A stretch of 64,000 bases of DNA. Origin: Lophium mytilinum (lineage: Eukaryota). Made by a program: the position numbers and the translations under genes. The notes beneath the pieces are model-generated. The model was not told the origin of the DNA, did no database searches, and saw only the letters and a list, made by a program, of their open reading frames with translations. The number at the start of each line of letters is the position of its first letter. Position 1 is the stretch's first letter. Shown piece after piece: positions 5,201-62,848 of this stretch. The stretch is from assembly GCA_010093605.1 (NCBI GenBank), contig MU004186.1, positions 141,765-205,764 on the forward strand, in the 5' to 3' direction.

Positions 5201-6145
5201 GCTCAGGGGGCCGCTTCTCGACGTGATATCTTTGCGAGCACGGATTTCGGGTGGGACGTAATCGTGGCTGAGGCGGAAATTCTTGGCCAAAGCCGTTTTT
5301 TAGCGGGCTCCTTGGGATCAGCCCTCGAGAAGGCGATCGATGTGGTGGAACGCGCACCGCATGCCTAGCGCCAGGCGGTCAACAAGTCTCATCTCCGCTG
5401 ACGGCGAGTGGCTGCTTTCTGCCGGATGAAAATTTTACGGGCCTCAGCGGCTCGCAGTGGAGATAGCAGCTCCACCACCCTCTGCCATGCCGGCCGCCCC
5501 CCCGGCCTGAAATCGAAGACTAGACCCCACCTGCTCCATCTGTTTAGAGCGCGCGCAGTATACGAGCTCAGGATGCGTTTCAGGCAGCCGTTGCAGCCGT
5601 GAGAGTTGAAGTGGGCTCCGAATTCGCCAGACGAGGCCCATGTTTGCGATAAGGGTCCAGCTTTTGAAGTCCGTTTTAGGTATTTCGGGAGCATCGACCG
5701 ATCCCTCGGATGGGTGAGCCGTGGTTCATTGTTGTGGTCGAGGTGCTTACAACGACAACAGCCCAGTATGGCGTCGTCGAGGGAGCGGATCGCGATAAGC
5801 TCCGGCTCAGCTCACGCCCTCCGCGAAAATATAATTAGGTTCAGCCACCAACCCGATGCGGGCCTGAATCGCATTCAATACCTCACCTCAGCCCTTCTCG
5901 GAGAGTGGGACAAGATATGTGTCCGTTGGGGTAGCCGCGCGCAACCTACGGCGCGGTCAACAACACCAAAGCCTCGCCGCCGGGTCTCGCCATGTCCTGC
6001 CACGACTGTGGATAAGCTGCGCCGGGTCCGTCTCAGGCGCTGAGCATGCTGCGACCAGCAGGTGTCTCAAACGCAGCCTGGCCGGTGTCTTCTGCATGCA
6101 GCAGAGGCAGGGAGAATGCGGGGAAGAGGAGGCCTCGTCTGAGGA

Positions 6146-9100
6146 GGGCAACAGAATAGAATGCCAGTAGCTTGGCGCATTTTGTATTACAATGCCAGAA
6201 AACGCCACGTAGATAATAAAGGACCGAGGCCATGCTAATACAGGCCTAGAAGCTAGCTTCTAAGCTTAATTAAGTACACCCCCCATTCTCTACTATCTAT
6301 AAGGCGTTTTCTAGCATTATACAACTATATATAGGCCTTAGCGTAGTATTAAACCTTAATTTTATAATATATATAATTGGCCGCTACTAGCGCACCTCTA
6401 TAGAATATAAGGAAATTAATAAAATTAGCCTAGTATACTTTAACTAAGGGAAAATAGCCTATAGGACTATAAAAATAGCCTATATTCTCTAGTATTAGCA
6501 TCTAAATATATAGAAATAGATAAAAACTCTATTTCTCTATTAAAAATTATCTAATTTTAATTAAAATTAAATAGTTAGAAAGCCTCTATACTTACGCCTA
6601 CTACGCGTATTATACTCTATTTCTCTATAGATTCTATACTTATTTCTAATAGTTACTCTTCTATCTAAATAGCGGTTACTAAATTACTTTCTTTTACGCT
6701 GCGTAGGGCCTAATTACTTCTTTTTTAGAGGCGGAAAAGAGGTAGAACTTAGTAGAAGGTTATTAACTCTTATAGGCTATATTATATAATATTCTAGTAA
6801 GCCCTCTATAAGTATAGAGGCGTAGCTATTTCTCTATATATAGGTTTTATATATATAGCCGTAGTAGCTACCTATATACCTGCCTATAATATAGATAATA
6901 GCTATTATATAGTAGTAAGAAAACTAGTAATTTTAAAACTCTCTATAGATGTATTTCTTTCTATTAAGCCTTATAATATACACTATAGCGTTAAAGTAAT
7001 ACTATACTATAGCCATATAGTTATAGTAATTAAATACTATATATATATTTATCTAGTAGTAATAGCCTAAGGCCTTATAGAGGTTACGCTTTAAAAGCTT
7101 CTACCTAAATAGTATAAAGAATAGAATATTACTCTATACTTTACCCGGCGGCAGCCTTATAAGCTTAATAGAATAAGCTATAGCTATAGCGTATCTCTTA
7201 GCGCGTATCTCTATTACGCGGCCCTATAGTAATACTAAAAGGTATAAAGTTAATAGCTCTTAGTTATTTCTAATTATTAAATTAAAGGACTTATTTACGC
7301 CGCTTATAATATAGCTAAAGCGTATAGTAATAATATTCTTTATTACCTATTAGCATAAGTCTATAGCCTTAATATAGGCTGCGGCGGTAGGCCTAAGAAA
7401 TATAATCTTAGCTATTAAGGCGTTAAATTTAACCTAGTTAGCGGTAAGGGTAAGCTTAAAGAAGAGCTTTAAGTAGGCAGTTCTATAGTGCTTCCTAATA
7501 TTCTCTAATAGGTGCTAGACGCAGTAGATACTATAGTAGTAAGAAAGAAGGCTATTAATAGTGTTCTAGAGGCCTTTATTATAATTGCTATAAAAAAAAT
7601 AGTATAAGTAGATAGATTTTTAATAGATCTATTAATAAGAATAGTATAGTTATAGAGACTATAAAATTTAGTATAGAAATTAACTGCGGCATTAAGAAGT
7701 ATATAGAAGGAAATTAAGAGGTATAGATACTATTATAAACGGGTATATAGAAATTAAAAGAAGGCTATTATAATTTTTATTTATATCTATATATTATTTA
7801 TTATAATAGGACCTTATATATAAACTATGCAATTTCTTACTAAAATTAACGCGTTTTAACTTAATGTCCCTGCTATAAATAAATATATAGATATCTACTT
7901 AAAAATTATTAATAAATAATAAAAATTAAACTTATAAGTAGATAGTCTATACTCCGGCTATATTAAGCTATAGTAGAGCTTTCTTTAGCTTCCTTATAAA
8001 CTACACCTATATCTTATTATTTTTACTCTCTATAATAGCCTAGGTAAGTAGATAGACCTTATTATTCTAGTCTCTTTCTATTATAATTAGTACTATATTC
8101 TTATACCTATTTCTTAGATATATTCTATTAAGGCTAAGCTAGTTAAGGCTAAAGATAAGAAAGGTTCTACTCTTCTTAGGGTATATAAAGACGCGCTAGA
8201 AGGCACCGCAGTAGAGAACTAGATTAGTAGTAATACTAGAATTCTTAACCTCTAGGCGCTCTAAGTACTTTAGAATCTTTATATAGTTATTCTCTATAGA
8301 CCTCTTATTATTACCGCATATTATTAGGCGCGCCCAGCGCGCCTAGAAGTTATTAATTAGGCCTTCTAGGTATATAGAGGCTAGCGCCTAAATATTACCT
8401 ATTAGTATTTTATAGGTAATAGAGCTAAGAAGAGGGAGATTCTCTACTAAGTATATTAATTATAACTACTCTATGCACTTTAAAGAGGGCGCGCTAATAT
8501 AGTAATACTTATTAGTAAGCTTTTAAACCTCTATAGTATTATTAACTTACTAAGTTATATAGAGATGCTATAGGTATAGTATAGTAGTACTATATTATAG
8601 GTTAATTTAAGTTCTATTACTTATAAGAATCTTAATTCTCTATTCTTTCTCTATAGTAACCTTATAGTAGATCTTCTTAATCTTCTAGAAGGTACTATAG
8701 GCCTTACTAACTTAAGAAATACTAGAGGACTCTATAGCAATAATAATAGAGAGAATAGAAAGTATAAAGCTTAATAGTAAGACTATAGAATAATAGTAAG
8801 GCTATAGAATAATAGTAAGGCTATATAAGAGGCTATATAAGCTAGAAAGAATAAATTAAGGCCTTTAAAAAGGTATAAGAAGGGCCTTTATATAGTAAGT
8901 TCTTACGGCTTTATAGTATTAAAATCTATTAATTTTTTATTACTTTTTTATTACTAATACAGCGTAGAAAGATAGATAGATAATTTCTTAGTATAGCTAC
9001 TATAAAATATAGTCTAGAGCTCTTCTAACTAGATAAGGCCTATAAAGCTATTAAATCTACTTCTCTATAGCTTTCTATAGCGTAGTAGCTTATCTATATT

Positions 9101-16108: not shown

Positions 16109-16855
16109 GCCCGGGACATCCAGGACACTTCACACCCTCCCACTACACACCTTTCACTTCGATCTCTGCTCTTGTCCATTAGGAGGACTTCTATACTTGG
16201 TGCACGCTCTTCTTTATTTGAGAGTCTGTTTGGGTGATTTACAGGCAAACGCGTTTTTGGAGGCTTGCGTAGATGATGTTCTGCTTCATATACCCCCGAG
16301 TTCATTCTACATCCTTCATCCACAAGTCATTGTATGCTAGAAAAGTGAGTCTACGTTGGTGACTGAATCTCTGACAACTCATCCTTATAATCTGATGTCA
16401 CGCTATGTATCATGCTTCATAAAGTGGTGACACATAAATGCAGATTCTGCCTCCTACAAGACGTGAGATGCAGTCTATTATGTATGCCTGGGGAGGACTA
16501 CTATTAGCGATGATAGGAAGGTGTGGATTGGCTGGACTTGTGACTTGGAGTACTGTATATGTTGTTTCACAGTTCGAGTGCCACTCTTGCATGCTCGATA
16601 ACACTACTAGGAGGACCATAGCTTGCAGTTATGTACCTAGTCAGTTAAGAGGCATTCTGGTCTCTACCGCTTCTAAACTTGACGTCGTGTCTAAATGTTA
16701 TAGAAGTAACTGCATGTACAGACCACTATTGGAGCTCTAATCTTCAACACTTACTACCACTGTCCCAAGTGTCTCAGCGTACAGGTAGCTAGCCAATTAA
16801 ATGACGTCTGATTCAAAGCTTCATAAACTCATAGCTACACCCACTACCTCCCCTC

Positions 16856-19800
16856 TCACACCGGCTTCGTCCAATTCCCTGGAAACAGCCCCTTCGCACC
16901 CGCATAACACCCCCAGAACCAATCCCCATTAATATCCTCCGCCTCCCTCACCTCCGCAAACTTCGGAAACATCAACTCATCCACCACCCCCTCGCGCGGG
17001 AACCTCGCCCACAGCGCCACTACCCGCATCCCGACGCCCCCATCCGGCGGAAACCTCCCCGGCGTCCCCAGCCCCAGCTTCGACCCCCCTCCTCCTCCAC
17101 CACCCCCTCCACCCCTACTCTTCCGCACCGTCCCATCCACATCCTTCCAGCTCCAATTCGGCGTCTCCCCGACATCCGCATTCGCCCCCCGCGTCCGCAC
17201 CGCCTGGCTATCCAGCCCGTCCTCGTCCCGCAGCGCCAGCCCGCCCACCAGATCCCGCGACACGACGCGCCGCTGCCCGCCATCCCGGTCCTCGAAGCCC
17301 ACGACCACCATGCGGTGCCCGCGCAGGCAGCGCCGCCAGCCCTGGTGGCCGTTCTCAGCGGATATGCGGCCGGCGGACACGAGGCCGTGGTAGCAGGGCG
17401 TGCAGATGTCGTAGTCGCCGCCCGTGCAGCGCGGGCAGTGGAAGCGGGTGTGCGAGGGCGGGATCGGGTAGGTGCAGATGTCGCAGCAGGTGCTGAAGGT
17501 GAGCGGGCGGTAGAGTTGGTTGGCGAGCGGGGTGGTGCCGGGGCCGCGGATGAGGGAGGCGGATTTCGGGGTTAGAGGGGGTGTGGAGGGGGTTGGGGGC
17601 GGTTGGAGGCTGGGTGTGGACGGGGCGGAGGTTGTGATGGAGGCCGGTTTGGGGGTGGGGTTGTGGGAGAGGGGGAGGAGGGGGTGCGTGCAGTGCCGGC
17701 CTTGGTTGACGCAGTCGTTGCAGAAGCCCCAGCCGCCTTCGTTGCAGATGTCGCATTTCCAGTAGCAGGATGAGGCGAAGGCGGAGCACATGTCGCAGAA
17801 GACGCCGGATTCGAGGCGGCGTGCTGGGTCTTGGTCCGTTGTAGTGGGTCGAGGTTCCGCGGGGAGGTTGGAAGGTCTTTTATATCTATGGCCTACGAGG
17901 ACGTGAGGTTGTTCGTTGTTGGCAGGGTGGCCTCCGGGAGGAGCTTTTTGTTCGTAATTCCTCCAGGCCGCGTACCCAAAGCCGAACCAGTGCTTGCAGC
18001 CTTTGCTCAATCTATAGCAGTCCAGACAGATGTTGTAATTACCATTGTCGCATAGTGCGCAGTTGTAGTGGAGGTCATACTCAATGTGTGTTTTGCCACA
18101 TCGATTGCAAATTATGTTTGGCTCTGAGAATAGGGTGGGAGGTGCAGCTGGAGCTGTGGTGGCCCCAGTGGACGTTGCCGGTCTTGAGTCGGCGGCAGAA
18201 GGCTCGGTAGTCGCCCGCGGTACCCCAAAAGCAGGGGAGCTGTTGATTGTAGGCTGAGATGGTCTTGCATGCGTTGGGTCCGTGGTTCGACGAGATGAGG
18301 AGTTGGGCGATGGGTTCATGAGGGCTGAGGGAGGAAGACTCGACAATGGACTTTCTGTGTTTACGTTGAAGGCCGACCGCCTTGGAGAATTGGGATTAGA
18401 TGACGAAGTATGAGTGTTGAGACTACTGCGGAATTGCCTTGCCTCTGGGTCGGTAGTGCTCCGGTCATTCTGGGACAAACGTCGTCTCCGAATAGAGCTG
18501 GCCACAGATGGAGGAGGGGGAGCATTTAGTTCACCAGCAGAGCGGGCAGCTTGACTCGAAGATGTCACAGATAGGGAGTTGAGCGCATCTACCCGAGGAG
18601 CTGAACGAGTGCTGCCTTGACTGGAAGATCTGCGATGATGTGCCCGACCATTGTTGTTCGCGGCATCAATTAGACCAGGACGGGATACTGGAGGGCGTGA
18701 CGAGTTCGGGGATGGCAAGGCGAGCACGGCGCTCTCCGACCGGCCATGAGGCCTCCTGCGTGCTTGGTCTCCATCAACTCGTATTGGCTGAGGGGCAGAG
18801 GCTCTCGAGGAGCTTCGGCTGTCGCGACTTGCGGGTGATGGGAGAGTCGCTGGTGGGGATGGGAGGGCCGTTTCGACTCGACCCTCTCCTGTCTGGCGGT
18901 CTTCCCGCTCTGTTCTCTGCTGCTGTCTTTCTCTCTGCCGTCTCCGGTATGCCTGAGCTATTCTCTCGCTGATCTCATCTTCTTGAGCCACGTCGATATT
19001 GGCGAGATCGATGCCGTCCAGGAGCCCCTCCTCCATAATCTGCCTCATAATCTCCTCTTCCATCTCTTGCGAGTCTAGATCTGAGGCGCTGAGAAGGGAT
19101 CTGAGGCTTGACTGGTGTTCAACGTGCCGCGCGGGTACATGAGAGGACCTCGGAGGCTCAGGCGGATTCCTGCTCGAGTCTCTCGTTCTTGGCCTCCGCC
19201 CATCCGGATCCCTGGAATCGCGACTTCTTTCCCTGCTACGCTCCCTTCTCCTACGCTCCCTGGGAGCTTCTAGCCCACCGCTTGAGAACCCTGCCTCCCT
19301 CAAACTAAGCTGCTGGGCCTCCGCTATCAATCTACGCTCTTCGTCCGCACCAGGGTCTTCTCGCTTTCTGAGTTTTGGTAACACATTCTCCCCAGGTTTG
19401 TACTTCTTATCCTGATCATCCTTATCCTGCTGCGACTTTCCACGGTCTGGATGCGCTTGCAGATACATGTCTAGGAGTGTTGTAACGGAGGCATTGTGGC
19501 GCGTGTCCCGCACCGAGGCCCGACATGACGGGCAGGTATACGGATGAATCGAAGTCGCAGATGAAGCCTGGAAATGGAACCATTCTTTCAAACACGCGCC
19601 GCAGAAGGTATGGAGGCAGTCGAGGAGGGTGAGGGGTTGGTAGAGGACGTCTGTACATATCTGTAAATCGCATTAGTAGGACCCTGGGAACGACAGCGGA
19701 GCACCGAACACCACCAAAAGAGGGCCCAGCACAACAGAGAAGCTTTCGCGTGATGATTATCGTGTCTCGCCCTCCGCTAAGACACGATCTCCTGCTTCTG

Positions 19801-19924
19801 TATTGAACCAGGCTGTTGCTCCACTCCCTCATGACGTTGATGTGCCCCTCTACACAGACCAACTTACCGAACAGCTCAGTTCCTTCTCCAGATCCATCAT
19901 CCCGGACTTTTCTTCCTCGGCCAT
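16856..19924 (-). CDS. RING-finger E3-ligase-like protein with ZZ-type zinc fingers and a C-terminal SH3-like domain; complement(join(16856..19660,19868..19924))
   Basis: Spliced N-terminus MAEEEKSGMMDLEKELSCS|ICTDVLYQPLTLLDCLHTFCGACLKEWF...CPSCR (C3HC4 RING). Three Cys-rich ZZ-like repeats; C-terminal ELMFPKFAEV...GDWFWGCYAGAKGLFPGN (SH3 signature). Confidence 0.88.
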
Positions 19925-20162
19925 GGTGCCTCTCGCTCGCCCGTTGTCAGCAGTCCCGTCGATCTGTGGACTTGTGGTAGGGGAGGGAAATCGGGGATGT
20001 TCCCAGCGCCGTCAGTCAGCCATCTCAGAACAGGACGCCATCAGCTTGGCGATTGGGTGGACGTCGTTGCGGTGAGCGGAAGCCTTCCATCGCCACGTAT
20101 ACGCCATCAACCTGACGACAACATTATTTGGGGTACCTTTATGGACATTTAAAACTAATAGT

Positions 20163-23100
20163 ACGATGTAAAGGTGAATACTGCCCATGTTAGACTGCCC
20201 TCTGGCTGAAAGACTTCCTGCTAGCTGGGCTTCTCCGGACGGTAGCATCAAGCGAGCAAGAGCGTAGCTTGGGCAGTAGTGTATCAGTGTGCCCTGAGGT
20301 ATTACTTATTCTACATCATAACATGGAGAAGAAAAAATAGACGCTCAATTCACAGTCCCGAGTCCTTTACATCATCATGCGAGATTTATATAATCCCAGG
20401 AGACCCTTCACAGTACCACTAGACTAGCAGTTGACTAGACACATCTACTCATCTCGAAATGTTCTATAATCATGATGCTGGAGGGTATGTAAGGGTTGAT
20501 GCGGCTCGAATGAGGTATCCTTCTGACTCATCGAGTAGCTGATACCTAGGCTATTCCTTACAGTATCGCAAAGCCAGCAAACGGAGGAGCTACGCTGTAG
20601 TTTATCTACGCGCATAAACCCATAACATAGTTTGTACTACGAGTCGGAAGCAGAATCCAAGATGTTTCATTTGCAGTATCAAGCTTTTCACATCGCTATG
20701 CAGGATTTCAGATATACTCAGGAGACCCTTTCAAGGTCCACCTTATTGTCAAGCAACTATCCAAAGCTACTCGATTCTTACTACTCCACGTCCTCGAGCA
20801 CAGGCTCAGAACTAAGAGATAATAGCTGAGGAGGTGCGGCACTGCAATTATTCTTGACCGTCTCCGATACCAGTTGACCTGCTGAAGAAAAATATGTAAA
20901 GAACTATACCGCGAAAATGGGATGATCTTTTGACCTAATGGCTACCGCCTAGCTAGCCTTAGGTTACCTGCTTCTGCAGCGACGAGTTCTTCGATCTGAA
21001 GCTCAATATTCTCTCCGTCGTCTTCAGAATCGACGTCCCCCTCGAAGTCAGTTTCAGAATCAGAGTTGTCATCCTCAGAACCATCTCCGGAATCAGGGTC
21101 GTCATCGTTGTAATGCCGAGAACTGATTGAGTCGAGCCTCAAGTACCATTATCAGATCCCTCGTCTCTTTCTCATCAGCAAACGCTTAAAATAGGCTAAT
21201 GTTTCCGAGTTCCCACAGGTCTGAGCGGAGCAGAGCCACCGGGGATCCAATCAATGCCTAAAGATTGGCGCGACGTATATCAGACTGCCTCTTGACGGAA
21301 ATGTCACTTACCAATCAGGCGTCTCCTTACAGTCGTGTTGAGCAAGCAAAGGAAACACCTATGGGCTGTGTATTGGAGCCACGACCTTCGACGCATGCTT
21401 GACATCAACTCGTGGGGATAAGTAGGCTGTGGCACCGCAAAGAGTCCTAACGCTCTCCTGGACTATCTACGAGCTGAAGAGCGAGATGTAAAGGTTCGCG
21501 CGATGGATGTTAGGCTGCCTTTTGACGAGACGGTCACTTGCTAATTAAGCTACTCCTTACAGTGGGATTGAGCGTGCAAAGAAAACACCTAGGGCTACCT
21601 ATTGGAGTCGTGGGTCGAACGCGCACTTAGCATTAGGTCGTAAAGACATGTGAGCTGCGGCACCGCAAAATGTCTTCAAGGTCTCCTGCACTATCTGGCG
21701 TGCTAAAGATTAGGATGCAAAGATGCGTGCGTCGTAGTTCTGGCTGCATTTTGGCCCGAGGGCTACCGTACAGCTAGGAGACTCCTTACATTGGTGTTGA
21801 GTTCGCAATTGTAACGCCCCAGAAGCCGTTTCTTGGACTCAGCTGCCACCGTAAGGCAAGCTTGATATCAAACCGTACAGAAGAATGTTTTGCAGCATGG
21901 CGAACAGTAATAAGGGTCTTTTGCGCTTCCTAATTTGCCGAAAAGCAGAACGTAAAGATTTATACAGTCCATATCAGACTACATTTTGGCGGGCCGGCAA
22001 CTTGCTGACTGAGCTGTTCCTTACGGTGGTATAAAGCATGCAAAACCAACGCCTAGGAGTTATATATTGGAATTGTGCTGCGATATTTCATGCCTGATTG
22101 AATTTGAACTAGAAGGATGAATGGACGGCGGCACCACGAACCGTCTCGAGAGTCTCCTGGACTGATTGATACAGCGACGAGCAGGATGTAAAGGTTCCCG
22201 TTGTGCATACCACACTTCTTTTTGACTAAACATCTGCCTACTTCTTAGGCGACCCCTCACAGCGGCGTTTAGCATGCAAAGTCAAGACCTGATAGTGACT
22301 GATTCGGCTGCACAGACGTGCTATCACTCAAACCCGATTTAAGAGTATACACAGTAAGAATTTGACTCCCTCTATACCAAGCAACTAGGTGCTAGCTGGG
22401 GTGCTCCTCACGGTGGCATCAAGCGTATAAAAGTAACGCTCAGCAGCGATACATCCGAGCGCTTGGTCGTGAGCTTACTTGGAGACAAGTCGAAGGTTCG
22501 CAGACTGCATATCATAGTTCATTTTGGCAACCTATTCACCTGCTGACTGGAGTACTCCTTACGGTGGTGTTGAGCTTGCAAAGGTATAAGACAGCGGCGG
22601 TACATTCGTGTGCTTGGATGAAGAGCTTCTTAGATACGATGTAAAGGTTGGTAGACTTCATATTACACCTCCTTTTGGCAAACCGGCTACCAACTATCTA
22701 AGCTACTCCTTACGGTAGTATCGACCCCTCAAAGGCAACGCCAAACAAGACAGCTTTGTGGTCGTTGCTATACGAATGCTAGGGCACGATGTAGAGGCCG
22801 GAAGACTTTATATCATATTTCCCTTTGGCAACCCAGCTACATACTAGCTAAGCCACTCCCTACAGTGGTATCAACCTTGCAATTCTAACGCCGAGGAACG
22901 ACGCATTTTTGACCTCTGCCCTAGGAATGCTGGAAAACGATGTTGAGATTGGTAGAATGCATATCATACATCCTTTTGGCAAACCAGCTACCCACGTGCT
23001 AAGCCACTCCTTACGGTGGTAGCAAACGTGCAAATATAGCACCGAGCAACGACATATTCGTGGCGCTTGCCTTAACACTACTCAAATGCAATGTAAGAGT

Positions 23101-26100
23101 CGACAAAGTGTATATCGTACTCCCTTTAAGCAACATAGCTACCTCCTAGCCAAGGCTATCCTCACGGTGGTTTTCAACGTGCAAAGGACACACGCGTCAG
23201 TAATACATCGGCATCTCCAAGTCTACATCTGCTTCAAGAGGATGTAGCAAAGAATGCGGTGGGAATTAGAGTACTCTTTGCTTAATCGGGAGCTATCTAG
23301 TTCGGCCGCTTCTTACGGCGGCGGAAAGCTAGCAAGAGAGCAGCGAGGCCTGTCCTTTTCGTAGGTCTATACCTAAGACTTTTCCCGCCACCATTGAATG
23401 ACCGGGGCTGCGGAAATAGACATCCTCTTGCACGAGCAACCACATGCCAGCCGAGCCACTCCCTACGGTGGGGTCTAACGTGCAAAGGTAGCGCCCAACG
23501 CCGCAAATTCGCATGCCCAGCTTTTCAATCGCAAGGACACGACGTAGTAGCTGATGCACTGGATATGAAATATCCATTTTACCGAAAGATTGCCGGCCAG
23601 CTAAGCAACTCCGTACAGTAGTATAAAGCGTACAGGATTTAGAGCTAGCAGGGAGATATTGGAATGCTCTAGAAAATTTGAACCGAATCTAATATGAAGA
23701 TTGAGGTAGTTGACATCAGGCACCCTTTTGACCAAGCGATTACCGGTTAGCTGAGCCGCTCGTCACAGTGGTGTTGGCCGTGCAGGAATACAGCATAACC
23801 AGAGAGATATAGGAGACCGTTAGAAAGTCCAAAGCAAATACACCGTGAAGGTTCGGGTAGTAGATATCAGACACCCTTTTAACCAAACGACGACCTACCA
23901 GCTGGGCCACTCCTTACAGTGGTGTTAAGCATACAAGATTGTAGCATAAGCAGATGAATATGGGGGGCTTTTCGAAATCATGAACTGACGGGAAGTAAAG
24001 GTTGGCGCAGTGGACATCAGGCTTCCTCTTGACCGAACAATTACCTGTTAGCTGAGCTGCTCCTTACAGCGGTAATGAGCCGTCAAGAACATAGCCTAAG
24101 CGGAGGGATATCGTGAGTCTTTAGAAAAGATAAACCGACGTGATGTAAAGGTTCGGGGAATCGACATCAGGCTTGCTTTTGACTGAAAACCTACTTGCTA
24201 GCGGATTCGCTCTTTACAGCGGCATTGAGCATGCAAGAATGTAGTCTAAGCAGAGTGATACCAGGGATCTCTGAAAAATTGAAGACGATATGATGTCAAA
24301 GGTCGAGGCCTTGGAATCCAGCATAGCGTTTGACCAGCTAGCTCTGTGCCTACCAAGCTACTCCAAACGGAGCTATCAAACGATCAAGAACCTCCCCAGA
24401 TGCGACGAATATCGGAGCCCTTCGAATAGAAGGTCGCGATGTGATGCAAGAGATGAGACCGCGGAAGTCAGCTTACCTTCGGAACAGCCAGCTACGTGCT
24501 CGGCGGGCTAAGCCAGACAGTGCTATTGAACTAGCAAGAGACTCCCTCGAGGTGACGGATAACGGGGGTCATTGAAAAAGAGACTCAAAACATGATGTAA
24601 GAGTGGAGGCCGTGGAACTCAGCTTACCATTCGAACAGCCAGCTACGTGCTTACTGGGCTCCTCCACACGATACCATCAAACGAGAAAACCCCTCCCCCG
24701 ATGCGACAAACATCAGAGGTTATTGAAGAGAAGATTAGTAGGTGATGTAAATTGGCGAGGCAGCGGAAATTTGACTGCGTTCTGACTACCCAGTCATATA
24801 CCCGCCAGGCTAATCCTGACAGTGCTCTGAAAAGAGCAAAAAGGTTTCCTAATACGACTGATATTAGGACACATCAACAAAATCATGAGAGGTACGATGT
24901 CACGGTCAGAGCTGTGCACATTGAACTTCCTCTTGGCCCACTGGCTAGCCGCTTGCTTGGCCACTTCACACAGTGCTATCAAACGAGCAAGAACAAACTC
25001 CAGCACGAGTTATCTCTGACTATATCAGAAAATCGAGACTTTCACGATGTCACGGTTGGAGCCATCGAGATCGGACTTCCTTTCGGCTGGCTAGCTCATC
25101 GATAGCTGAGCTACTTCTTACGGTGCTATTAAACGAGCAAGCTTGTTCCCCAATACTACGGATATCTAGGTACCTAGGAAAACCTCACAATAGTAGAATG
25201 CTAAAGTCAAAGCAGTCGATATTGAACATCGTTTTGGCTAGCAAGGTCATCGTTGGCTAGGTTACTTCTTACAGTGCCATCATACGAGCAAGAGAATTCG
25301 ACGATGCTACGGATATCGAGATACCTGGGAATGCCTGTACTGATGGCATCCTATAGTTGAAGCAGTCGAGATGTGGCTACCTTTAGCCGGCTAGCTACTT
25401 GCTGGCTGAGCCACCCCTTACAGTGGCAACGGGCGTGGAGAAGTATGGCACGCGATGTAAAGGTTGATACAGTGGGAATCGGTCCAACTTTTGGCCAGCC
25501 AGCTACCTATCATCTAGACCACCCCTTACAGCGGTGACAAGCGTACAAAAGTATAATACTCGATGTAAAGGCAACTACACTAGAAATTAGACTATGTTTT
25601 GGCCGCCCAGCTAAGACCTAGCTAGGCTACCCCTTACAGCGGTGACGAGTGTATAGAAGTATAGCAAACGATGTAAATATAACAGTGTGAGAATCGCACT
25701 ACCTTTTGGCCAGCCGCTTACCAACTATCTGAGATACTCCTTACGTTGGCGACGAACGTCTAAAGCCACAGCACAGAATACAAAGGGCAACACGGTGGAT
25801 AACAGACTATCTTTGAGCTAGCGAGCTACCTACCACCGGGGATACTCCTCACGGCGGTAACAAGCGGATAAAAGTACACTGCACGATGTAAAAGCTAACA
25901 CCGTGGGAACTGAATCACCCTTTAGACGGCTATTCACTTAAAAGCTGGGCCACTCTGTACAGTGCTTTTCAGGGTGCAAAGGACAGATCACGATGTTGAA
26001 TTCGACGCGGCGGCAATTGAACTTCCTTTTGGCAGGTCTCCCACCTGATACTGAGGCTGCTCCTTACGTTGCTTTCAGGAGTGCAAAGTGCAGATCACGA

Positions 26101-28445
26101 TGTTGAGTTCAATGCCGCAGAAATTGAACATGCTTTTGACAGATCTTCCCCCTAATACTGGGCCGCTCCTTACAGTGCTTTTCGGAGCGCAAAGGGCAGA
26201 TTACGATGTTAACTTCAATGCGGCGGAAATCGAACTTCCTTTTGGCAGGTCTCTCATCAAATACTAAGGCCGCTCCGTACAGTGCTTTCAAAGGTGCAAG
26301 AGGATGAATTACGATGTCAAGGTCAACACGTGGATATCAGACTTCCTTCTGGCAGGCCCTTCACTCAATAGCCAGGCCCCTCCGTACGGTGCTTTCAAAG
26401 GTGCAAAAGGATAGATTACGATGTCAGGGTCAACACGTGGATATCAGACTTCCTTTTGGCAGGCCCTTCACTCAATAGTTAGGCCGATCCGTACGATGCT
26501 TTTAAGGGCGCAAAAGGGTAGCTCACGGTGTCAACGTCTATACCGTAGAGGTTAACCTTGCGTTTGACCAGACCTCCACCTAATAGCTAGGCTACTCCGG
26601 ACGTTGCTCCTAATAGTGCAAAAGGGTAGAATAGTATATAAGGGGCAACAAAGAAGGAATCGGAGTACATTCTGGTCGACAAGCTACCTAATAGCTGGGC
26701 TACTCCTGGCAGTGCTTTCAAGTGTGCAAAGGCGGATGTTACGATGTCAAGGTCGACACAATAGAGATTACACTCCCTCTTACCCGTCCAAATAAATACT
26801 GGCTGGGCTACTCCAAACGGTACTATCACACGTATAAAAGCGGGAATTACGATGTTAAGGTCAACACAGTAGAGATGAGACTACCCTTTACTCGTCCGAA
26901 ATTACACTAGCTAGGCTACTCCTGGCAGTGCTATTAAATATGCAAAAGCGGACATTACGATGTCAAGATCGATAGAATAGAGATTAAACTCCCTTTTGCC
27001 CGTCTAAATTCATACTAGCTAGGCTCCTCCAAACGGTGCTATCACACGTGCAAAGCGGGAATCACGATGTCAAGGTCAACACCATGAATATTGAACTCCC
27101 TTTTGCCCGTCTGAACACATACTAGCTGGACTCGTCCAAACGGTGCTATCATACGTGCAAAAGCGGAATCGCGATGTCAAAGTCAACACCATAAAGATTG
27201 AACTACGCATTACGCCGCCGAATACATAGTAGGCAGGGTCCTCCTCACACCGCTATTAAGCATTCAAGAGAAAGAAAACAACGTGAAAGCCGATGCAGGA
27301 CATATTAGATATCGTCTTGACTGAAACACTTCCGGCTGATGGAGCTCCTCCCTACGGTGTGATTCTGCGTGCAAAATGAAGGAAACTATGTAGTAGGCAC
27401 CGCCATGGGAAGCAGGAATACTTTTAACTAGCCAGCTATGTGCTAGCTGCACTACCCCTAACGGCGCTTTCACTCCTCCAAAAGATTGAAAAGAATAAAA
27501 AGCTTAACGCACTACATATTAGACATCCTCTTAACCGACCAGCGACGTGCTAACTAGGGCTCTCCGTACAGCGCTATTTAGCATACAAAAGGAAGAAAAC
27601 GATGTAAAACTAAACATAATAGATATTAGACATCTTTTTAACTGGCTAGCTACGTGCTAGCTAGGCCTCTTCCAACAGCGCCCTTAAGCATGCAAAAGGA
27701 ATAGAATGATGTAAAGCTCAAAGCACCAAGTATCGGGAATATCTTTGACTGACTAGCTACGTGCTGGCTGGGCCCCTCCTAACAGCACTATCAAGCATGC
27801 AAAGGATAGAAGTCAATGTATAGTTCTATGCAATAGGACTTAGACATCCTTTTGAACCGCCAGCTACGTGTTAATTGGAGTACTCCTAACAGTGCTTTTA
27901 AGCGTGCAAAAGGAAAGAAATCATGTTAAACTCAACGCAATAGCTATCAGACTTCTTTTTGACTGATCAGCTACGCACTGACCAGGCCCCTCCCAGCAGC
28001 GGTATCAAGCAAGCAGAATGATGAAAACGATGTAAGATTCCTTGGAATAGGATTCCAACATCCTTTTGACCGACTAGCTGGGCGCTACTTAGACTACTCC
28101 TGACAGTGCTCTCCAGTAAGCAAAGGGAAAGAAATGATGTCGATCTCGACAAGACAGAGATCAGACAGCGTTTTGACCGATCATTCACCTACGGACGAGG
28201 CCACTCCCTACGGTGGTAACAAGCAAGCAGAATGATGAAAACGATGTAAGAATCCTTGGAACAGGATTCCAACATGCTTTTGAACGACCAGCTGGGCGGT
28301 ACTTGGACTACTCCTGACAGTGCTCTCAAGCATGCAAAAGGAAAGAAATGATGTAAATCTCGACATGATAGAGATCAGACAGCGTTTTGACCGATCATTC
28401 ACCTACCGACGAGGCCACTCCCTATGGTGGCAACGCGCATGCAAT
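20163..28445. repeat. Diverged tandem array of ~57 copies of a ~97-bp core; periods ~321, ~230, ~150 and ~107 bp
   Basis: Approximate core consensus CGATGTAAAGGTnnnnnnnTnnATATCAGACTnCCTTTTGACnnnCnAGCTACnTGCTAGCTGGGCTACTCCTTACAGTGGTATCAAGCGTGCAAA. The CTCC-nnAC anchor is seen at 20237 and 20558, at 21327-22257 (5 copies), 22408-25418 (21) and 25526-28422 (28). A truncated unit lies at ~20893-20960. Confidence 0.95.
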
Positions 28446-28517
28446 AGTGCAACTTGAGGAGTGGTATATCGGTGTTCCCAAGATTCGGCCCACAGCATTC
28501 GGAGCATTGGCTCTTAC

Positions 28518-28840
28518 GTTGAAGCTGTGTACACTACTCTGCAACCGTCTGGGGTGATTCGAACAGGTTTCAAGCATGTCAAAGGCATGTGTTTCTTCGT
28601 GTTTTCGATTGCTGAAAAGGCTTGGAGGGACTTCAGACGGTGGCGAAATAGGGTAACATCACTACTGATACAAGCGAAATTCTAAGAACTTCGAACAGCG
28701 GATATACGTTAGGCTCTGTGTACAGCATTCTGCAGCCGTCTGAAGTGGCTTGAGCAGGTTTCACAGATGTCAGAGGGATGGACTTGCACGGGATTTGGAT
28801 GACTGAAAGGACTTCAGGCGGTGGTAGAACGGTGTATCGC
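28518..28840. repeat. Diverged two-copy direct repeat, period ~190 bp
   Basis: CTGTGTACA...TCTGCA.CCGTCTG...CAGGTTTCA...ATGTCA...GGACTTCAG.CGGTGG occurs at ~28525-28645 and ~28716-28825. Confidence 0.7.
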
Positions 28841-29047: not shown

Positions 29048-32000
29048 CTAGCAGTTCCTTGGTCCTACTACTTCACGTTTCTGGACCCAGACCTTTACCT
29101 GGTGACGCTCCGTCACCTGGTACGTGTCGTTGAGCAGCTCGCCTACCAAATTCAGACTATCAACCTTCTCTTTCAACTGCTCCTTGAACGCCACGTAGGC
29201 TTCGACGGCGTCAATCCTCGCACCCTTTGGCTTCTTGTACTCAATGATGGCGCTCATGGCGGAATTGTTCGCAGATTGGACGGTTGTGTGCAGCTTTCCC
29301 TGCATGTACTCCGTTAATCCTTCCTTATCAACTCCTTCGAGGTCGTCTACGTCCATCCACAGCTCCTCATCGCCTTCAAGTACTCGCTTTTGTACGTCGT
29401 GGCGGCAGATGACGTCGTACAAGAACTTCGGCATCCAGCCGATCTTGGAGGCAGGGCGACGGCCCTCTGCGCGAGTGCGCAGACGGCGGCTTACGACGAC
29501 TCGGAATCTGCCGGCCTCACAGGCGCAGAAGTTCTGCGCCATGCCCTTGGCGTCTTTGGCGAAGCGGGACTCCGTGCAGTGTTGTCCGAAGTTTAGGCCA
29601 TCGCGCTCCACGAAACACTCCTCAAACGCCGCCTTGTTCGCGTCTTCGAGGTTGTAGTACTTCTTTCCGACGGTGACCCACTCTAGGTCCTGCTCGACGT
29701 CGCTATGTGCCATAGTCTTACGCTTCAGCTCATACTCGAAGTGTTCTTTGTCTGAGTCTCGGAGCGGGGACGGGTCGCGGTGGTTCCAGACATCCTGCGA
29801 TTTCTTCACAACTACTGGCTCTTCTTCGACATCCGACTCCTCGTCCTGCGAGTCGTCTTCGGAACTGTCTTCAGAATCGTCTTCGGTCTCTGAGTTGTGA
29901 AGGATCGCGTTCTGCGGGTCGGAATCGACTGTCTTGTTGCCTTGGAGGACTACAAGTTTGGCAGGGCCATTGGAATTCGGGGCGTTTGGCGAAGAGGACG
30001 GCGGAGTGATGGGCGGAGCGGACTGATCATCGCTTGGCTTGGTTGCGAGCTTTTGCGCTGTTGAATTGGTCAGTCCGCGTTTCTCTTAGATAGCATCAAG
30101 AACGATGGGACGACTGTACCTTTCTTCTTCTCGTTGTACCTCTTGGCGGATTCCTGCTTTCTTCTCTTCGCCAAAGCATCCCTCTCGAGTCTCTCTGCTT
30201 CTGTCTCGGGCGAAGCTTTACGCTTTCTTCCCTGCTTCTGTAAGATAAGTGTTAGCTTGCGTCTATCATTGGCAAGACGGATGATGCTTACCTTGGGCGG
30301 GGATGCCTGAGTGTCCTGAGGCTGCGTCGCACTCTTTGGAACGGACGCAGACGTCTCAGCCTTCGAGGCAGATTCAACTGGAGCAGCGGCAGCAGAAGCT
30401 TGGGAAGTGGACGTAGTGATAACCACCGGGGCCTGAGTAACATCCTTTGCCATTGGCTCTTTCGAGGCAGATGCAACTACAGTAGCGGCAGCGGAGCCTT
30501 GGGAGGTGGACGTGGTGATAGTCATCGGGACCGGCGTAACATCCTTCGCCATTGGCTCTTTCGAGGCAGATGCGATTGGAGTAGCGGCAGCAGGAGCTCG
30601 GGCAGTGGACGTAGTGATAGCAATGGGGATTGGAGTGGCCTTCTTTGCCACTAGTGTACTCTTCTGCTCTCTGGAAGCAGATGCAATTGGAGTAGCGGCA
30701 GCAGGAGCTCGGGCAGTGGATGTAGTGATAGCCATCGGGGCTGGAGTAGTCTTCTTTCCCACTAGCGCATCTTTTTCATCTTTCGAAACAGATGCAACTC
30801 GAGTAGCGGAAGCAGGACCTCGTGCAGTGGACATAGTGGTAGCCAACGAGACCGGAGTAGCCTTCTTTCCTACTAATGCACCTTTCTGCTCTTTCGAAAC
30901 GGATGCAGTTGGACCAGCGGAAGCAGAACCTCGGGCAGTGGACGTAGTGGTAGCCATCGAGACTGGAGTAGTCTTCTTTTCCACTAGTGCACCATTTTGC
31001 TCTTTCGAAACAGACGCAATTGGGGTAGCGGAAGCCGAACCTCGGGCAACGGAAGTAGGGATAGCCATCGGAGCCGGAGTCGTCGTCGTGAAAGCATTCG
31101 CTTTGGCTGGTCGGGGAGAGGGGCGGAGTGGATTGGTGTGCCAGCCTTTCTTTGAGTTACGCTGGGAAGCCGGCTTCGGAATCCTGTTGAGCAGGGGATC
31201 AGGCCTATCAGGACCACGGTCTTGTCCAAATGGCCGAATACCGATAGCAGATTCGCTCTCCGTTGGCACTGATGGGCCGAGTTCACTCGAAGCCGTGGCT
31301 TCCTTGCGTTGCGCTTCGACTTCTTCAGTCGCTTGATGGTGCTCCGCAGGGCGTTTCTCATTATCAGCTTTCAAGCCACCGGCAGGCGCCGAGGCAAGAT
31401 AGCCCCATGCGGGCTTCCCAGTGTTCCTCGGTCCAGTTGCGTGAGGCTGCTCCGTATGGCGCTTCTCATCATCAGCTTTCAAGTCACCGGCAGGCGCCGA
31501 GGCAAGATAACCCCATGCGGGCTTCCCAGTGTTCCTCGGTCCAGTTGGCGGATTCCACGGAGGCGCGTTGCGCAACTGAGCAGGAGATACAGAGGAGCGT
31601 TGAGACGGCGGTCGGTACTCATTCTGATACTTGGACGAGCTATCGGTGCTGGCGTTCGGTTCTGGTTCGCGAAATCCTTTCAATCCGCTTCCACCGGCGT
31701 CTTTGCGGACAGAAATGTCTGGGACCTTGAAACCTTGACTAGTAGACACCTGCACAGGTGGCACTGGAATGCGGGAGGGAGCTTGTTTGGTCGGGGCTTC
31801 ATCTTCGCCGCCGATCATCGCCATGATGTCGCTAAGGACTGAGGTCACCGGGGCTGTGGGCTGCGGGGACTTCTTCTGGACCTGAGCCTCGGAAGTCTCT
31901 ACGTGTGTCTTGGGTGGCTGAACTGTCTTAGGCTTGCTCGTAACCTTGGGCTTTCCTGCTTGGGCTTCTCCAACCTTCGCACCTGGTGGCGGAAGGGTCT

Positions 32001-34312
32001 CGCGGGCGTCTCGCTTGACTTTCAAAAGCTTGACATTCAGTCCAGCACCTTTCGGTGTGCTCGAGCTGCCAGGCGGTCGTGAAGGCTTCAAGGGTGCAGC
32101 AACCTGTCGCTGCGACTCGTTGTTAGATCCAGACTCTTTCAAGGCGCGGGCTTTCTCTCGGAGCGCCTTGCTAGTAGCAGAACCACCTGAGTTGACGAGA
32201 GGGGAAGCATGTACCTTGTTCTTTGCAGAACCGTTTTCGCTATCAACGTCCATGTGTTCTGGGTCGTGGTGCGGTGGAGAAGGGCCATCGGTACGAACCC
32301 GCTTGGTCTCAGGACCGGTGTTCGCAGGGCGAGGGCGGATGTCTGAACTTCCTTGGGAGCTGGATGGGCTGTCGGGACGAGCGCGCTTTGCTGGAACTTT
32401 GCCACGGCTATCCATAGCGAAACGAGTTGTTGGTGGATCGAGAGAGAGAGGATGGTTGAATTGGGACGGGAAAGGATGTCGATACGCTGTCGAGTTTTGG
32501 TCTAACGCGCGCGACGATGGATGAAGAGATTGCTGTCGAAAAGCAGAGGATTGTGAAGATGGAGAGAGGAGTGTATGACGAGAGTCTCGAGGTGAGAACT
32601 GGAGTTCTTCTTCTCGTTCTTCGCTTCCCGTTCGCCTGTTCCCATTCAAATTGGTCCGTGCGCCGACCATCCTATTGTTCCCATTGTTCTGAATAAGAAC
32701 TTCACCGGAGCGCACACGCCCAGGCGCGTCCGGATTTTGACGAATCATTTCGTAGCTGTCGTCATCAGAGATGCCGGCCTCGTTCTCAGAGATGCCGGCC
32801 TCGCTATCAGAGATGTCGATAATCTCGTTGGGACTGACATTCACATTCTCTAGGCGACGAGACTCTTCCTCCCCACGAGCATATTTAAGATCCCGGGTTT
32901 GGTGGGAAGAGTCCATATAATAGACAGGACGATTTATGCTGCCTTGGCTCATATTTCGTGTTGAGGTACGCAGAGCAGTGCCAAGCGTGGAACTGCGTCG
33001 CGACTCAGATGGGGGATATCGGTTCGCTATGAAGGGTACTTGGTAACCGACGTTGACGTTGTGACGAGATGAAGAATGACTATTAGGTCGGCCTTGTATT
33101 ACGAGAGACACATTCGGGTCATCCGCAAATAGTGGCCCCCGACGATCTTTCTGAGATTCTCGAGGTGCTCTAAGACGGCTGGCGGGCTGGTCTTGTTGTG
33201 CGTAAGGTATACCCGGGTCTTCCCCGTAAAGAGATCCCCGACTCCCACCATGTAGTTCCCGAGGTACTCTAGCACGGATGGCAGGCACGTCTTGTTGTAC
33301 GTCAGACATACCAGGGATTTCGGCATAGAGCAATCCTTGATCATAGGCTCGAGATTCTCGAGTTGCTCTAAGACGGCTGGCAGATGTGTCTTGTCGCACG
33401 TGAGGTATACCAGGACGCTCCCCACGAATAGATCCTCGGCGATCATTCTGAGGTTCCGTGGGTACTCCAGCACGGATGATAGGTGGGGCTTGTTGTACGT
33501 GAGACATATCGATGCCCTCCAGATAGAAAGATTCCCTGCGAGACTGCCGACGTGTTCCAGAACGGCTAGGATCAAGGTGAGATCTGGGCTGAGTTGGTGA
33601 GAAGGATTGAGGACCACGCGTCTGGGAAGTTTGAAGCTGAGAGTTGCCCTCTTCGTAAGCCTCTTCGCTTGCATATCGGTCGTCCATCTCGTCTTCGTCG
33701 AAACCACGAGCCCGGGGTTGCTCTTCGATCATATTTGGACCTTGCCGCCGAGCTTGACGGTCAGTCTGAGCCCCACGAGGATGTGTGTCGTTGTAATAGC
33801 GGCTTGTGGAACGAGGTTCCTCATTATAGTCGCGAACTTGGTAGTTGCTGTATTGCTCATGACGCTGGCGGCCACCACCCTGCTTGTAGTGCAGATCGGT
33901 GCTGTCCTCGGTGTATTGATCACCGCCAGGGAAGTCATCGTCTTCGAAGTCATCGCCCTGGTAGCCATCGCCGTAGTAGCCGTCGCCGTAGTAGCCATCG
34001 CCTTGGGCAGCATTTTCTTGTGGCTCGTTGTACTGAGCATCTCCATAGTCGCTGTATTGACTATCCTCTTGGGGATTATCGCCTGGGTCCTCATCATCCT
34101 GGCCGTTCGGGCCGTAACCATCATCGTACGTATAAGTTGGGCCGCGATTCTAATTGTATCAGTATATTCCATTAGATAAAGCGCATTTGACTTACAGCGT
34201 GCTGACTGCTACGATGAGCCATCCCTAGACGAGGCGCTTGCTGGTCGTCACGATGATTCCGACGGGGACGGGGCATCGCATTCTGCGACCTCGCTTTGGA
34301 TGGTCCCGGCAT
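29048..34312 (-). CDS. Hypothetical ~1700-aa low-complexity, repeat-rich protein with a globular C-terminal region; complement(join(29048..30057,30120..30237,30292..34149,34196..34312))
   Basis: Three short GT-AG introns with branch sites join the ORFs in frame (5103 nt). Internal repeats of 66, 40 and 37/33 aa; NLS-like GRKRK and KRRK. Confidence 0.8.
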
Positions 34313-62643: not shown

Positions 62644-62848
62644 GTGCACTCTCGCACGACGAGGTCTGGTAAGCCACATTCCAACTAACGCCGTTAGGTC
62701 GAGTATTTCGAATCGTGGCTATTGTTCTCGATATCGTTCGTCTTGCCATCTATCTTGGCCATGACACTTCTGGCCGTCTTCGAGAACGGGACGTGCAGGC
62801 TTTCTGACGGACGCCTGTTTATAAGTTTGGGGACACTTGTAAACTTAA

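Follow-up and report, generated by a model that had tools for sequence, protein, structure and literature searches.

The locus analyzed here raises the question of what is represented by an 8.3-kb block of short, strongly diverged tandem units beside a RING-finger gene. The block lies in a 64,000-nucleotide stretch of DNA from Lophium mytilinum, which we refer to as the window, and an earlier note had read its heavy substitution without indels as a sign of selection on each unit rather than of neutral satellite decay. The reading to which we give about an even chance of being correct is that the array belongs to an old, lineage-restricted satellite family with tandem as well as dispersed copies, and that its units carry a mildly constrained, putative DNA-level module.

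Using an nhmmer profile seeded from clean distal units and iterated once, we found 57 contiguous head-to-tail units over 8.3 kb on the + strand (20165-28447), each with a core of ~98 nt and a linker; TRF on its own detects just the distal stretch with periods of 107, 108, and 214 bp. The distance from the ATG of the RING-finger gene (16859-19924, − strand; Pfam zf-C3HC4; A of the ATG at 19924) to the first unit is 240 bp, in agreement with the earlier estimate. The periods fall into three classes of 229-407, 149-152, and 106-108 bp. The proximal, presumably oldest part (20165-22184) holds seven units with periods of 321, 407, 362, 230, 229, 235, and 236 bp, and this end is visibly decaying, with foreign sequence inserted between units and the unit at 20893 truncated past core position 66. 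It is followed on the same strand by 21 units of 149-152 bp (22185-25346; 98-nt core and ~52-nt linker), a transitional unit (25347-25453), and 28 units of 106-108 bp (25454-28447; 98-nt core and ~9-nt linker). At the far end, in what is probably the youngest part (27744-28434, + strand), TRF detects a 214-bp higher-order repeat of two 107-bp units in ~3 copies with 80-89% identity, in which the nearest neighbors stand at lag 2 with identities of 0.86-0.89. The fixed geometry of the core, as well as the count of ~57 units, was confirmed: exact GATGT occurs 38 times in 20101-28500 and is accompanied by exact CTCCnnAC within 115 nt in 21 cases, with an offset to the C of CTCC of 68 in 15 of the 21 pairs, 67 in three, and 69 in one (two outliers), while 200 shuffles gave at most one match at this spacing. 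This offset of 68 equals the 72 given earlier, which was counted to the "nn". That large length changes fall in the linker is true between classes, which differ by linker length; within a class, however, the linker is as constant in length as the core.

The units have diverged further than the third of positions previously estimated by eye. In an alignment of 58 sequences (56 of the 57 array units and two solo copies), pairwise identity averages 0.537 (range, 0.364-0.897; 1,653 pairs), i.e., units differ at ~46% of positions. Most units are closest to the neighbor at lag 1-2, with 57-90% identity, and this similarity of neighbors together with the 214-bp higher-order repeat conforms to growth by local duplication as expected of satellite DNA. 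The long head-to-tail arrangement and the non-coding character also conform: as noted earlier, there is no long ORF in the array, the longest stop-to-stop frame being 119 aa, and no frame is free of stops in more than 10 of the 58 units. Homogenization of the monomers by concerted evolution, on the other hand, is not seen, given the mean identity of 0.537 and a best pair at 0.90. The statement that the array matches no known family holds for Rfam, whereas as a kind of thing the array behaves like satellite DNA.

The family is not confined to the array. On the − strand, a full-length core copy (16583-16686; nhmmer E = 5.9e-13) lies ~170 bp past the stop codon of the RING gene, whose orientation it shares, and a partial second copy (16746-16813; E = 2.4e-05) lies 163 bp from it, so that the two form a mini-array with array-like spacing. 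A solo core copy on the + strand (62547-62645; E = 2.5e-19) is flanked by a tRNA gene on one side and a tRNA-like fragment on the other. All three copies are intergenic and none lies in a recognizable intron in the 64-kb window. The solo copies are on average 53-57% identical to the array units; the 62.5-kb copy retains the conserved blocks of the array, while two are lost at 16.6 kb, with GACGT for GATGT and CTCCTAGT for CTCCnnAC. Unit-like pieces from other places are also carried by DNA contigs of the source sequencing run and by RNA contigs. Among 47 related metagenome loci, which come from distant relatives with at most 67% amino acid identity, no comparable array was found upstream of RING orthologues, and these loci thus lend no support to deep conservation of the array.

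Fungi with repeat-induced point mutation (RIP) seldom retain long repeats. RIP is indicated by a (CpA+TpG)/(ApC+GpT) ratio below ~1.03 and a TpA/ApT ratio above ~0.89. The first ratio is 1.07-1.17 in the array versus 0.33-0.38 in the AT-rich blocks at 1-2000 and 6000-9000; the second is 0.95-1.16 in the array, 0.72-0.78 in the flanks, and 1.58-1.67 in the AT-rich blocks, and its raised value in the array may simply reflect the motifs of the unit itself. The array has a GC content of 46-49%, and the transition/transversion ratio between units is 1.1-1.75 overall and 1.3-1.75 in close pairs. Copies altered by RIP would differ almost exclusively by C-to-T and G-to-A changes; in the closest pairs, the ratio is only 1.47 and 1.75. 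We therefore reject a RIP-mutated repeat and concur with the earlier note that the array has not been converted. Here, 8.3 kb of repeats have persisted through deep divergence beside active genes with an ordinary mutation spectrum, which suggests that arrays of 107- to 150-bp units grow below the detection threshold of RIP.

The argument from indels to selection on the core does not hold in the form given. In the 150-bp class, the gap fraction is 0.000 in the core and 0.001 in the 52-nt linker, while the information per column is 0.91 bits in the core versus 0.48 bits in the linker; because the poorly conserved linker is equally indel-poor, indel scarcity is not evidence of selection on the core. 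Moreover, fungal mutation accumulation spectra contain ~30 substitutions per indel, so the ratios observed here are only modestly unusual. Substitution rates, by contrast, do support some constraint on the core. Conservation is not uniform, as the earlier note had expected it to be under neutral divergence: by parsimony, core columns changed less than linker columns (4.80 versus 7.12 changes; p = 4e-7), and the numbers of changes per column show overdispersion (mean, 12.8; variance, 24.8); on a tree of 16.8 substitutions per site, one column never changed. The slowest columns (A6, G74, CTCC78-81, AC84-85, and A103) have 0-5 changes, leaving ~10 near-frozen core positions in ATG, CTCCnnAC, and CAA. 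A gamma rate model is favored (lnL, −5091.5 versus −5139.9), and its alpha of 4.17 indicates that constraint is modest overall. Per-column change counts in the 28 proximal and 28 distal units are correlated (Spearman, 0.43; p = 1e-5), and the correlation remains after correction for base and CpG (0.37; p = 2e-4). Altogether, these data show a weak to moderate site-specific constraint on ~10-12 core positions, comprising ATG near the start, a TTT run, G...CTCCnnAC.G.G, and CAA.

Based on these observations, we propose that the family is restricted to a Dothideomycete lineage near Mytilinidion and Lepidopterella, in which a ~98-bp core with its linker would have been amplified stepwise by local tandem duplication or unequal exchange. 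During amplification, the linker would have shrunk from ~130 to ~52 to ~9 bp, with the newest copies arising at the array end away from the RING gene. Homogenization would then have ceased, the units drifting to ~54% identity, and short pieces of the array would have been dispersed elsewhere. The constrained positions may form a DNA-level recognition module; such a module might be bound by a sequence-specific protein or, alternatively, favor duplication or recombination, so that units keeping the motif would leave more descendants. The core may accordingly have a protein-binding or recombination role, as suggested earlier; the constrained motif matches no verifiable factor. Besides the modest overall constraint and the lack of comparable arrays at the 47 related loci, further observations run against this proposal: changes per column increase with CpG fraction (rho, 0.44), and this part of the rate variation is also predicted by a neutral mutational model; a binding site in each unit leaves the near-absence of small indels in the linker unexplained; and the transcription of the proximal units, in which unit motifs serve as splice sites, makes a role at the RNA level possible.

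The alternative that survives best, doubtful in our view but to be taken seriously, is a purely neutral decaying satellite, i.e., a functionless fossil in which slow columns reflect uneven mutability, such as CpG decay elsewhere in the unit. Such a fossil fits the lack of homogenization at a mean identity of 54%, the modest rate heterogeneity, the CpG dependence of the rates, the truncated unit and insertions at the decaying proximal end, the equal scarcity of indels in core and linker, and the failure to find relatives among the 47 related loci. However, it does not readily account for a correlation between the rates of the two halves of the array that outlasts removal of base and CpG effects, or for the presence, among the slowest columns, of cytosines that precede A or G (C85), where mutation is not expected to be slow. 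Neither does it explain that the core is slower than the linker within the same units, that the blocks are retained in the 62.5-kb solo copy (albeit not all in the 16.6-kb copy), and that 8.3 kb were kept through ~0.4 substitutions per site between nearest neighbors in an assembly of 44-46 million letters.

A stronger functional version of the satellite reading, which we consider rather unlikely, is that the core would be a protein-recognition module (ATG...TTT...G...CTCCnnAC.G.G...CAA) and the array a phased platform of ~57 sites with selection on both period and motif. Such a platform might form a chromatin boundary, act in a centromere-like or pairing role with sister arrays at other sites in the genome, or be the source from which a genome-wide repeat family was amplified.

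Function could also reside in RNA, and RNA is in fact made from the array. The RING gene itself has an intron (19661-19867) in a spliced RNA contig. A contig joint at 20070->20173 marks a GT..AG intron (20072-20173, + strand), whose acceptor AG belongs to the GATGTAAAG block in the first unit, and a second joint (21491->21561; depth, 8) marks a 69-nt GT..AG intron in the unit at 21485 (21494-21562, + strand), which extends from the GT after GATGTAAAG (donor, AAAG/GT) to the end of CTCCTTACAG. Because both introns read GT..AG on the + strand, the array RNA is most likely of this strand. Own-locus RNA contigs (20173-20484 and 20538-21491) cover the array between 20173 and 21491, and the spliced contig runs on for at least 140 nt past 21561. 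Transcription is found over the proximal ~1.5 kb at low depth, and unspliced units are present among the RNA contigs. Most simply, this low-level transcription and splicing on the + strand at the RING-proximal end would be a by-product of a divergent RING promoter region; either way, repeat motifs of the array have been recruited as splice sites.

A + strand precursor giving rise to unit-length or spliced non-coding RNAs, e.g., as a protein sponge or in a guide-like role without conserved structure, is consistent with these contigs and introns, with the unit-like sequence in RNA contigs from other places, and with a strand asymmetry in which A/G interchanges exceed C/T interchanges on the + strand (3,615 versus 2,461 in the largest bin). 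Nevertheless, we consider it quite improbable. The array contig that clearly stems from this locus has a depth of 8 versus 191 for the RING contig, and the sites at which splicing occurs are weak and lack conservation among the units. At gathering thresholds, Rfam identified only the tRNA at 61212-61310 and no match in the array, and at E ≤ 10 over 20000-28600 only two sub-threshold, chance-level matches; ARAGORN found no tRNA in the array, and the units have no similarity to tRNA, 5S, or 7SL RNA. The RNAalifold consensus fold of the units has 0 pairs, and 11 candidate pairs are paired in 62.8% of cases versus a mean of 62.8% after shuffling. A 7-bp long-range pairing of CCTTTTG with CAAAAGG shows neither covariation nor compensatory changes, and the folding energies of the 58 units are close to those of shuffles (mean z, −0.20 on the + strand and +0.05 on the − strand). 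Box C (RUGAUGA) followed by box D (CUGA) 40-120 nt downstream occurs in only two of 57 units on the + strand and one of 57 on the − strand. These results do not support the proposed processed, structured small RNA, lead us to reject an array of structured non-coding RNA genes, and argue for a DNA-level rather than an RNA-structure reading of the core.

Alternatively, a transposon-derived family, either related to Dothideomycete introners or similar to SINEs or MITEs, might have formed a tandem cluster by chance; to this origin we accord little probability. The family is both dispersed and tandem, splicing removes one unit almost precisely from an RNA (21494-21562), and one solo copy lies between tRNA-type sequences. 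Moreover, ascomycete introners are reported to have neither terminal inverted repeats nor target-site duplications (PMC9860276); the units likewise have no terminal inverted repeats and, as far as two loci allow a judgment, no target-site duplications. However, ascomycete introners are reported to show a strong gene bias and near-identical copies (PMC4457414; PMC9860276), unlike the units. Only six of the 58 units combine a GT donor with a CTRAY branch motif and an AG acceptor, the G at +5 that fungal donors typically have is found at only six of 43 GT sites, no copy outside the array is in a recognizable intron in the window, and unspliced units occur in RNA; we therefore reject intron-like elements. 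A MITE or SINE is not supported either: the consensus ends, matching at only 9 of 18 positions, do not make up a terminal inverted repeat, the columns of the A-box-like AGTGG evolve fast, and tRNA or 5S similarity is lacking. Finally, a silent cassette library donating sequence to an expressed locus by gene conversion, which the array resembles only in its general look of many diverged units of fixed length, is close to refuted and has next to no probability left, because the units are non-coding, nhmmer finds only the array and the three copies in the window and hence no expressed homologue, and variation is spread across the unit rather than confined to a variable segment.

The array provides a clean natural test bed for constraint on non-coding sites, with 57 gapless paralogues and a nearly neutral internal reference in the linker. 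Should a binding site underlie the frozen positions, the array would be a rare case of an ascomycete satellite with a function. It also calls for caution in annotation: fixed geometry and indel-free divergence resemble a "system," yet old satellites show both.

Compared with known systems, the array shares with RIP-degraded repeats of filamentous ascomycetes a substitution-rich, indel-poor divergence, with RIP evident nearby, and differs in that its spectrum is ordinary rather than made up almost wholly of C-to-T changes, CpA and TpG are undepleted, and GC holds at 46-49%. Tandem arrays of small non-coding RNAs (5S RNA, spliced-leader RNA, and snoRNA clusters such as SNORD115/116) also comprise many tandem units, constant in length and sharing short conserved boxes, and may be embedded in a transcribed, spliced host RNA, as here at one end; however, they have the family matches, conserved folds, covariation, and C/D or H/ACA boxes that are lacking here. 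Introner-like elements of Dothideomycetes, the fungal class of the host, have a size of the order of 100 nt, are reported to lack terminal inverted repeats and target-site duplications, and are spliced from RNA, as is one unit here; in contrast, they are near-identical, working introns in genes with full splice signals, whereas the units are ~54% identical, intergenic, and tandem. Another likeness is to satellites such as the Drosophila 1.688 family, which forms both long arrays and short dispersed euchromatic arrays. Shared are head-to-tail monomers of 100-400 bp in several length variants, a higher-order repeat, neighbors that are most alike, short dispersed copies near genes, and low-level transcription. 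Here, however, there is no sign of ongoing homogenization, nearest neighbors being only 57-90% identical, and the array stands as one 8.3-kb block among genes, not as heterochromatin, in a RIP-competent fungal host, where long repeats are normally destroyed.

The array comprises 57 units on the + strand at 20165-28447, as identified with a profile that was built from 13 clean distal units and used, with one nhmmer iteration, to scan the whole window. The same scan returned only two - strand copies, one + strand copy and one chance-level match outside the array, while TRF alone saw only the distal part of the array, with periods of 107, 108 and 214 bp. Each unit has a core of ~98 nt, which runs from GATGT to GCAAAAG and is followed by a linker. 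From the proximal to the distal end, there are seven proximal units with periods of 321, 407, 362, 230, 229, 235, and 236 bp; a 150-bp class of 21 units (22185-25346; 149-152 bp); one transitional unit; and a 107-bp class of 28 units (106-108 bp). The fixed offset between GATGT and CTCCnnAC noticed previously was confirmed: among the 21 units in which both motifs are exact, it is 68 in 15, 67 in three, and 69 in one, with two outliers, and shuffled sequence gives at most one match at this spacing. The unit alignment (A1), which includes 56 of the 57 array units and two solo copies and leaves out two incomplete ones, namely truncated unit 20893 and partial copy 16746, is nearly free of gaps. 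The proximal end, which adjoins the RING-finger gene (- strand; ATG at 19924), has one truncated unit and foreign sequence separating units. Directly after the truncated third unit, and inside the RNA-covered stretch, lies an acidic (D/E/S-rich) open frame of 68 aa (20942-21148, - strand), which lacks a Pfam match and resembles a captured piece of a gene. Neither terminal inverted repeats nor a foldback were found around the array; the only repeat in the flanks is a 66-bp direct pair (28525-28589 and 28716-28780; 79% identity) just beyond the distal end, which is unrelated to the unit.

The units are more diverged than the third of positions estimated in the earlier note, with a mean pairwise identity of 0.537 (range 0.364-0.897; 1653 pairs). 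The nearest relative of most units is the neighbor at a lag of one or two (57-90% identity), and the distal end holds the most similar units, which make up a 214-bp higher-order repeat. Most-alike neighbors, a distal 214-bp repeat and a decayed proximal end are together the hallmark of an array that grew stepwise by local duplication; its youngest copies lie far from the RING gene, and no homogenization followed. Repeat-induced point mutation (RIP) as the origin of unit divergence is ruled out by dinucleotide ratios and transition/transversion ratios. As claimed from the first reading, the array is not RIP-converted, with a (CpA+TpG)/(ApC+GpT) ratio of 1.07-1.17 compared with 0.33-0.38 in the AT-rich blocks at 1-2000 and 6000-9000; moreover, the transition/transversion ratio is 1.47 and 1.75 in the closest unit pairs and drops towards 1 with saturation. 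The TpA/ApT ratio is slightly elevated, at 0.95-1.16 in the array and 0.72-0.78 in its flanks, which could be a trace of RIP or merely reflect the motif content of the units. The AT-rich blocks themselves (GC 0.26-0.37; TpA/ApT 1.58-1.67) carry a strong RIP signature and are presumably degraded transposons.

The earlier note argued that heavy substitution without indels suggests selection on each unit. The indel part of this argument fails: the 52-nt linker of the 150-bp class is essentially gap-free despite poor conservation (0.48 bits per column versus 0.91 in the core; unit length 149-152 bp), and indel scarcity is therefore a property of the whole period and not of the core. Yeast mutation-accumulation spectra have ~30 substitutions per small indel; against this figure, the ratios of about 40-130 to 1 in close unit pairs are only moderately unusual. 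The linker of the 150-bp class is near substitution saturation, and its length is constant to 1-2 nt over 21 units; this constraint on the period is accounted for by none of the explanations offered. What stands from column-rate tests is a real but limited constraint on the core, involving about 10-12 positions. On class-specific maximum likelihood trees, parsimony changes per column are fewer in the core than in the linker, both in the 150-bp class (4.80 versus 7.12; p = 4e-7) and in the 107-bp class (5.32 versus 7.50; p = 0.008, with only 10 linker columns). On the 58-sequence tree, which has a total length of 16.8 substitutions per site, columns change 12.8 times on average (variance 24.8); a single column, the middle A of GCAA, is unchanged, and A6, G74, CTCC78-81, and AC84-85 change two to five times each. 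Per-column changes in the proximal 28 and distal 28 units, counted on separate trees, are correlated (Spearman 0.43; p = 1e-5), and the correlation is 0.37 (p = 2e-4) once consensus base and CpG fraction are regressed out. Two points temper this conclusion: columns as a whole vary only modestly in rate (alpha 4.17), and part of this variation is explained by CpG content (rho 0.44).

The mechanism that we consider most likely, at about an even chance, is that the units propagate at the DNA level through local duplication and that a small putative recognition module is kept by host selection or biased amplification. The main rival, according to which the array is decaying neutrally, is possible at a clearly lower probability, and it has to accommodate the slow core columns and their agreement between the two halves of the array. 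The reading of an HMG-type CAAAG site present thrice per unit was rejected as too weak to claim, with exact CAAARG/CYTTTG matches at 0.77 per unit and two or more in 10 of 57 units.

Contigs of X3, a sequencing run that matches the window, are RNA-like, as they skip canonical introns of the flanking genes (15751/15838, 15909/15964, 19660/19868, 30057/30120, and 30237/30292). In a 3054-nt X3 contig, the RING mRNA is joined to 19868-20070 and, after a 102-nt skip, to 20173-20484. The skipped piece (20072-20173) is bounded by GT..AG on the + strand, opposite to RING; therefore, this contig merges the RING mRNA with an overlapping + strand transcript. The acceptor AG of this intron belongs to GATGTAAAG of the first unit. 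Another X3 contig (depth 8) spans 20538-21491 with a 69-nt skip inside the unit at 21485, from the GT directly after GATGTAAAG to the end of CTCCTTACAG. Based on these two + strand GT..AG introns, the proximal ~1.5 kb of the array is transcribed on the + strand and, because unit motifs bound the introns, these motifs are capable of splice-site use. The + strand transcript (19868-20484) runs across the RING gene's first coding exon and 5' region; sense and antisense RNAs overlap there, because one RNA contig has both a CT..AC intron (19661-19867) and the GT..AG intron at 20072-20173. No own-locus contigs were found in X3 past about 21700, and no RNA runs matching 25450-28450 are listed, neither of which is evidence of silence. 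Patches of depth further into the array derive from contigs with unlike flanks, i.e., from other loci, and unspliced unit-like sequence from other loci is present in RNA contigs. Beyond the array, the - strand ORF at 30073-34149 (1359 aa) has introns at 30058-30119 and 30238-30291 in RNA contigs, contains 99- and 111-bp tandem repeats (33 and 37 codons) at 30362-31000, and has no Pfam domain.

Alongside this transcription, a function of the array at the RNA level appears improbable. The suggestion of a processed, structured small RNA found no backing in family, fold, covariation, or stability. At gathering thresholds, Rfam identified only the tRNA at 61212-61310; at E<=10, it gave just two sub-threshold chance matches in the array, and ARAGORN returned nothing relevant to the array, arguing against a known RNA family. 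RNAalifold predicted 0 pairs for the units, and scans for mutual information and pair excess gave no paired columns. The unit consensus has a pair of short palindromes, and its CCTTTTG and CAAAAGG are complementary at long range; in the units, however, these are paired in 62.8% of cases versus 62.8% when shuffled, with a covariation of 0.218 versus 0.214. The long-range helix has no compensatory pattern (columns 42/105: TA 33, TG 12, CA 6, CG 3), and folding energy equals that of dinucleotide shuffles on both strands (z about 0). We therefore reject a conserved RNA structure, as regards both the two hand-picked hairpins and the long-range helix. Similarly, a C/D snoRNA array is rejected, as just two of 57 units have a box C with a box D after it and only four of 57 a perfect box-C-like heptamer. 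Within the 214-bp repeat, two unit linkers (about 28015-28030 and 28229-28244) read AATGATGAAAAC, with such a heptamer. Finally, stop content and short frames rule out a coding or spliced coding array: consistent with the absence of a long ORF noted before, the longest stop-to-stop frame is 119 aa, and no frame is free of stops in more than 10 of 58 units.

Because unit motifs act as splice sites in RNA, an intron-like reading was also tested. The full set of splice signals (donor GT, CTRAY branch motif, and acceptor AG) occurs in only six of 58 units, a G stands at +5, as in fungal donors, in six of 43 GT sites, and unspliced unit-like RNA exists, leading us to reject intron-like elements. 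In published accounts, ascomycete introners are gene-biased, near-identical, and without terminal repeats (PMC4457414; PMC9860276), and the units fit them solely in this last respect. A transposon origin of the units is unlikely, about as improbable as an RNA-level function.

Copies outside the array were detected by nhmmer at 16583-16686 (-, full), 16746-16813 (-, partial), and 62547-62645 (+, solo). The 16.6-kb copies are 163 bp apart just 3' of the RING stop codon and are oriented away from the RING gene, like the main array on its other side. The solo copies have a mean identity of 0.53-0.57 to array units, i.e., the same divergence as among units; the 62.5-kb copy retains the unit blocks, and in the 16.6-kb copy the GATGT and AC positions are gone. 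The 62.5-kb copy is flanked by a tRNA gene on one side and a tRNA-like fragment on the other. The former (61212-61310, -) contains an intron, scores 54.6 bits in Rfam, and was missed by ARAGORN; the latter (about 62858-62890, +) is a copy of its 5' half ~1.5 kb off on the opposite strand, followed by unrelated sequence. DNA contigs of the source run contain pieces that are 90-95% like short unit parts with unit-like but different flanks, and therefore the genome contains additional copies elsewhere.

The flanking DNA polymerase lambda has 91% identity to its Mytilinidion resinicola counterpart and 80% to the Lepidopterella palustris protein, which places the host among the Dothideomycetes in the vicinity of these species. 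Scanning metagenome contigs with the RING protein gave 47 loci with a RING orthologue (<=67% identity), in which neither the unit (none at E<=0.01; best E = 0.049) nor a comparable tandem repeat was found. The two closest loci keep the CBM21-ORF-RING order; their similarity to the window stops at ~20076, with a flippase and MRP-L46 upstream instead, and the array therefore lies where synteny with these distant relatives breaks off. Searches at the protein level with the array ORFs gave no relatives, and a full-text literature search gave no description of the array.

The array falls outside RNA families, introner-like elements, and RIP-degraded repeats, since features that define each of these were looked for without success. 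In kind, it is satellite DNA. It shares with satellite DNA the tandem arrangement of monomers, variation in monomer length, a higher-order repeat, short dispersed arrays, and a low level of transcription; unlike typical satellites, it is unhomogenized, euchromatic, and mildly constrained, in a genome with active RIP.
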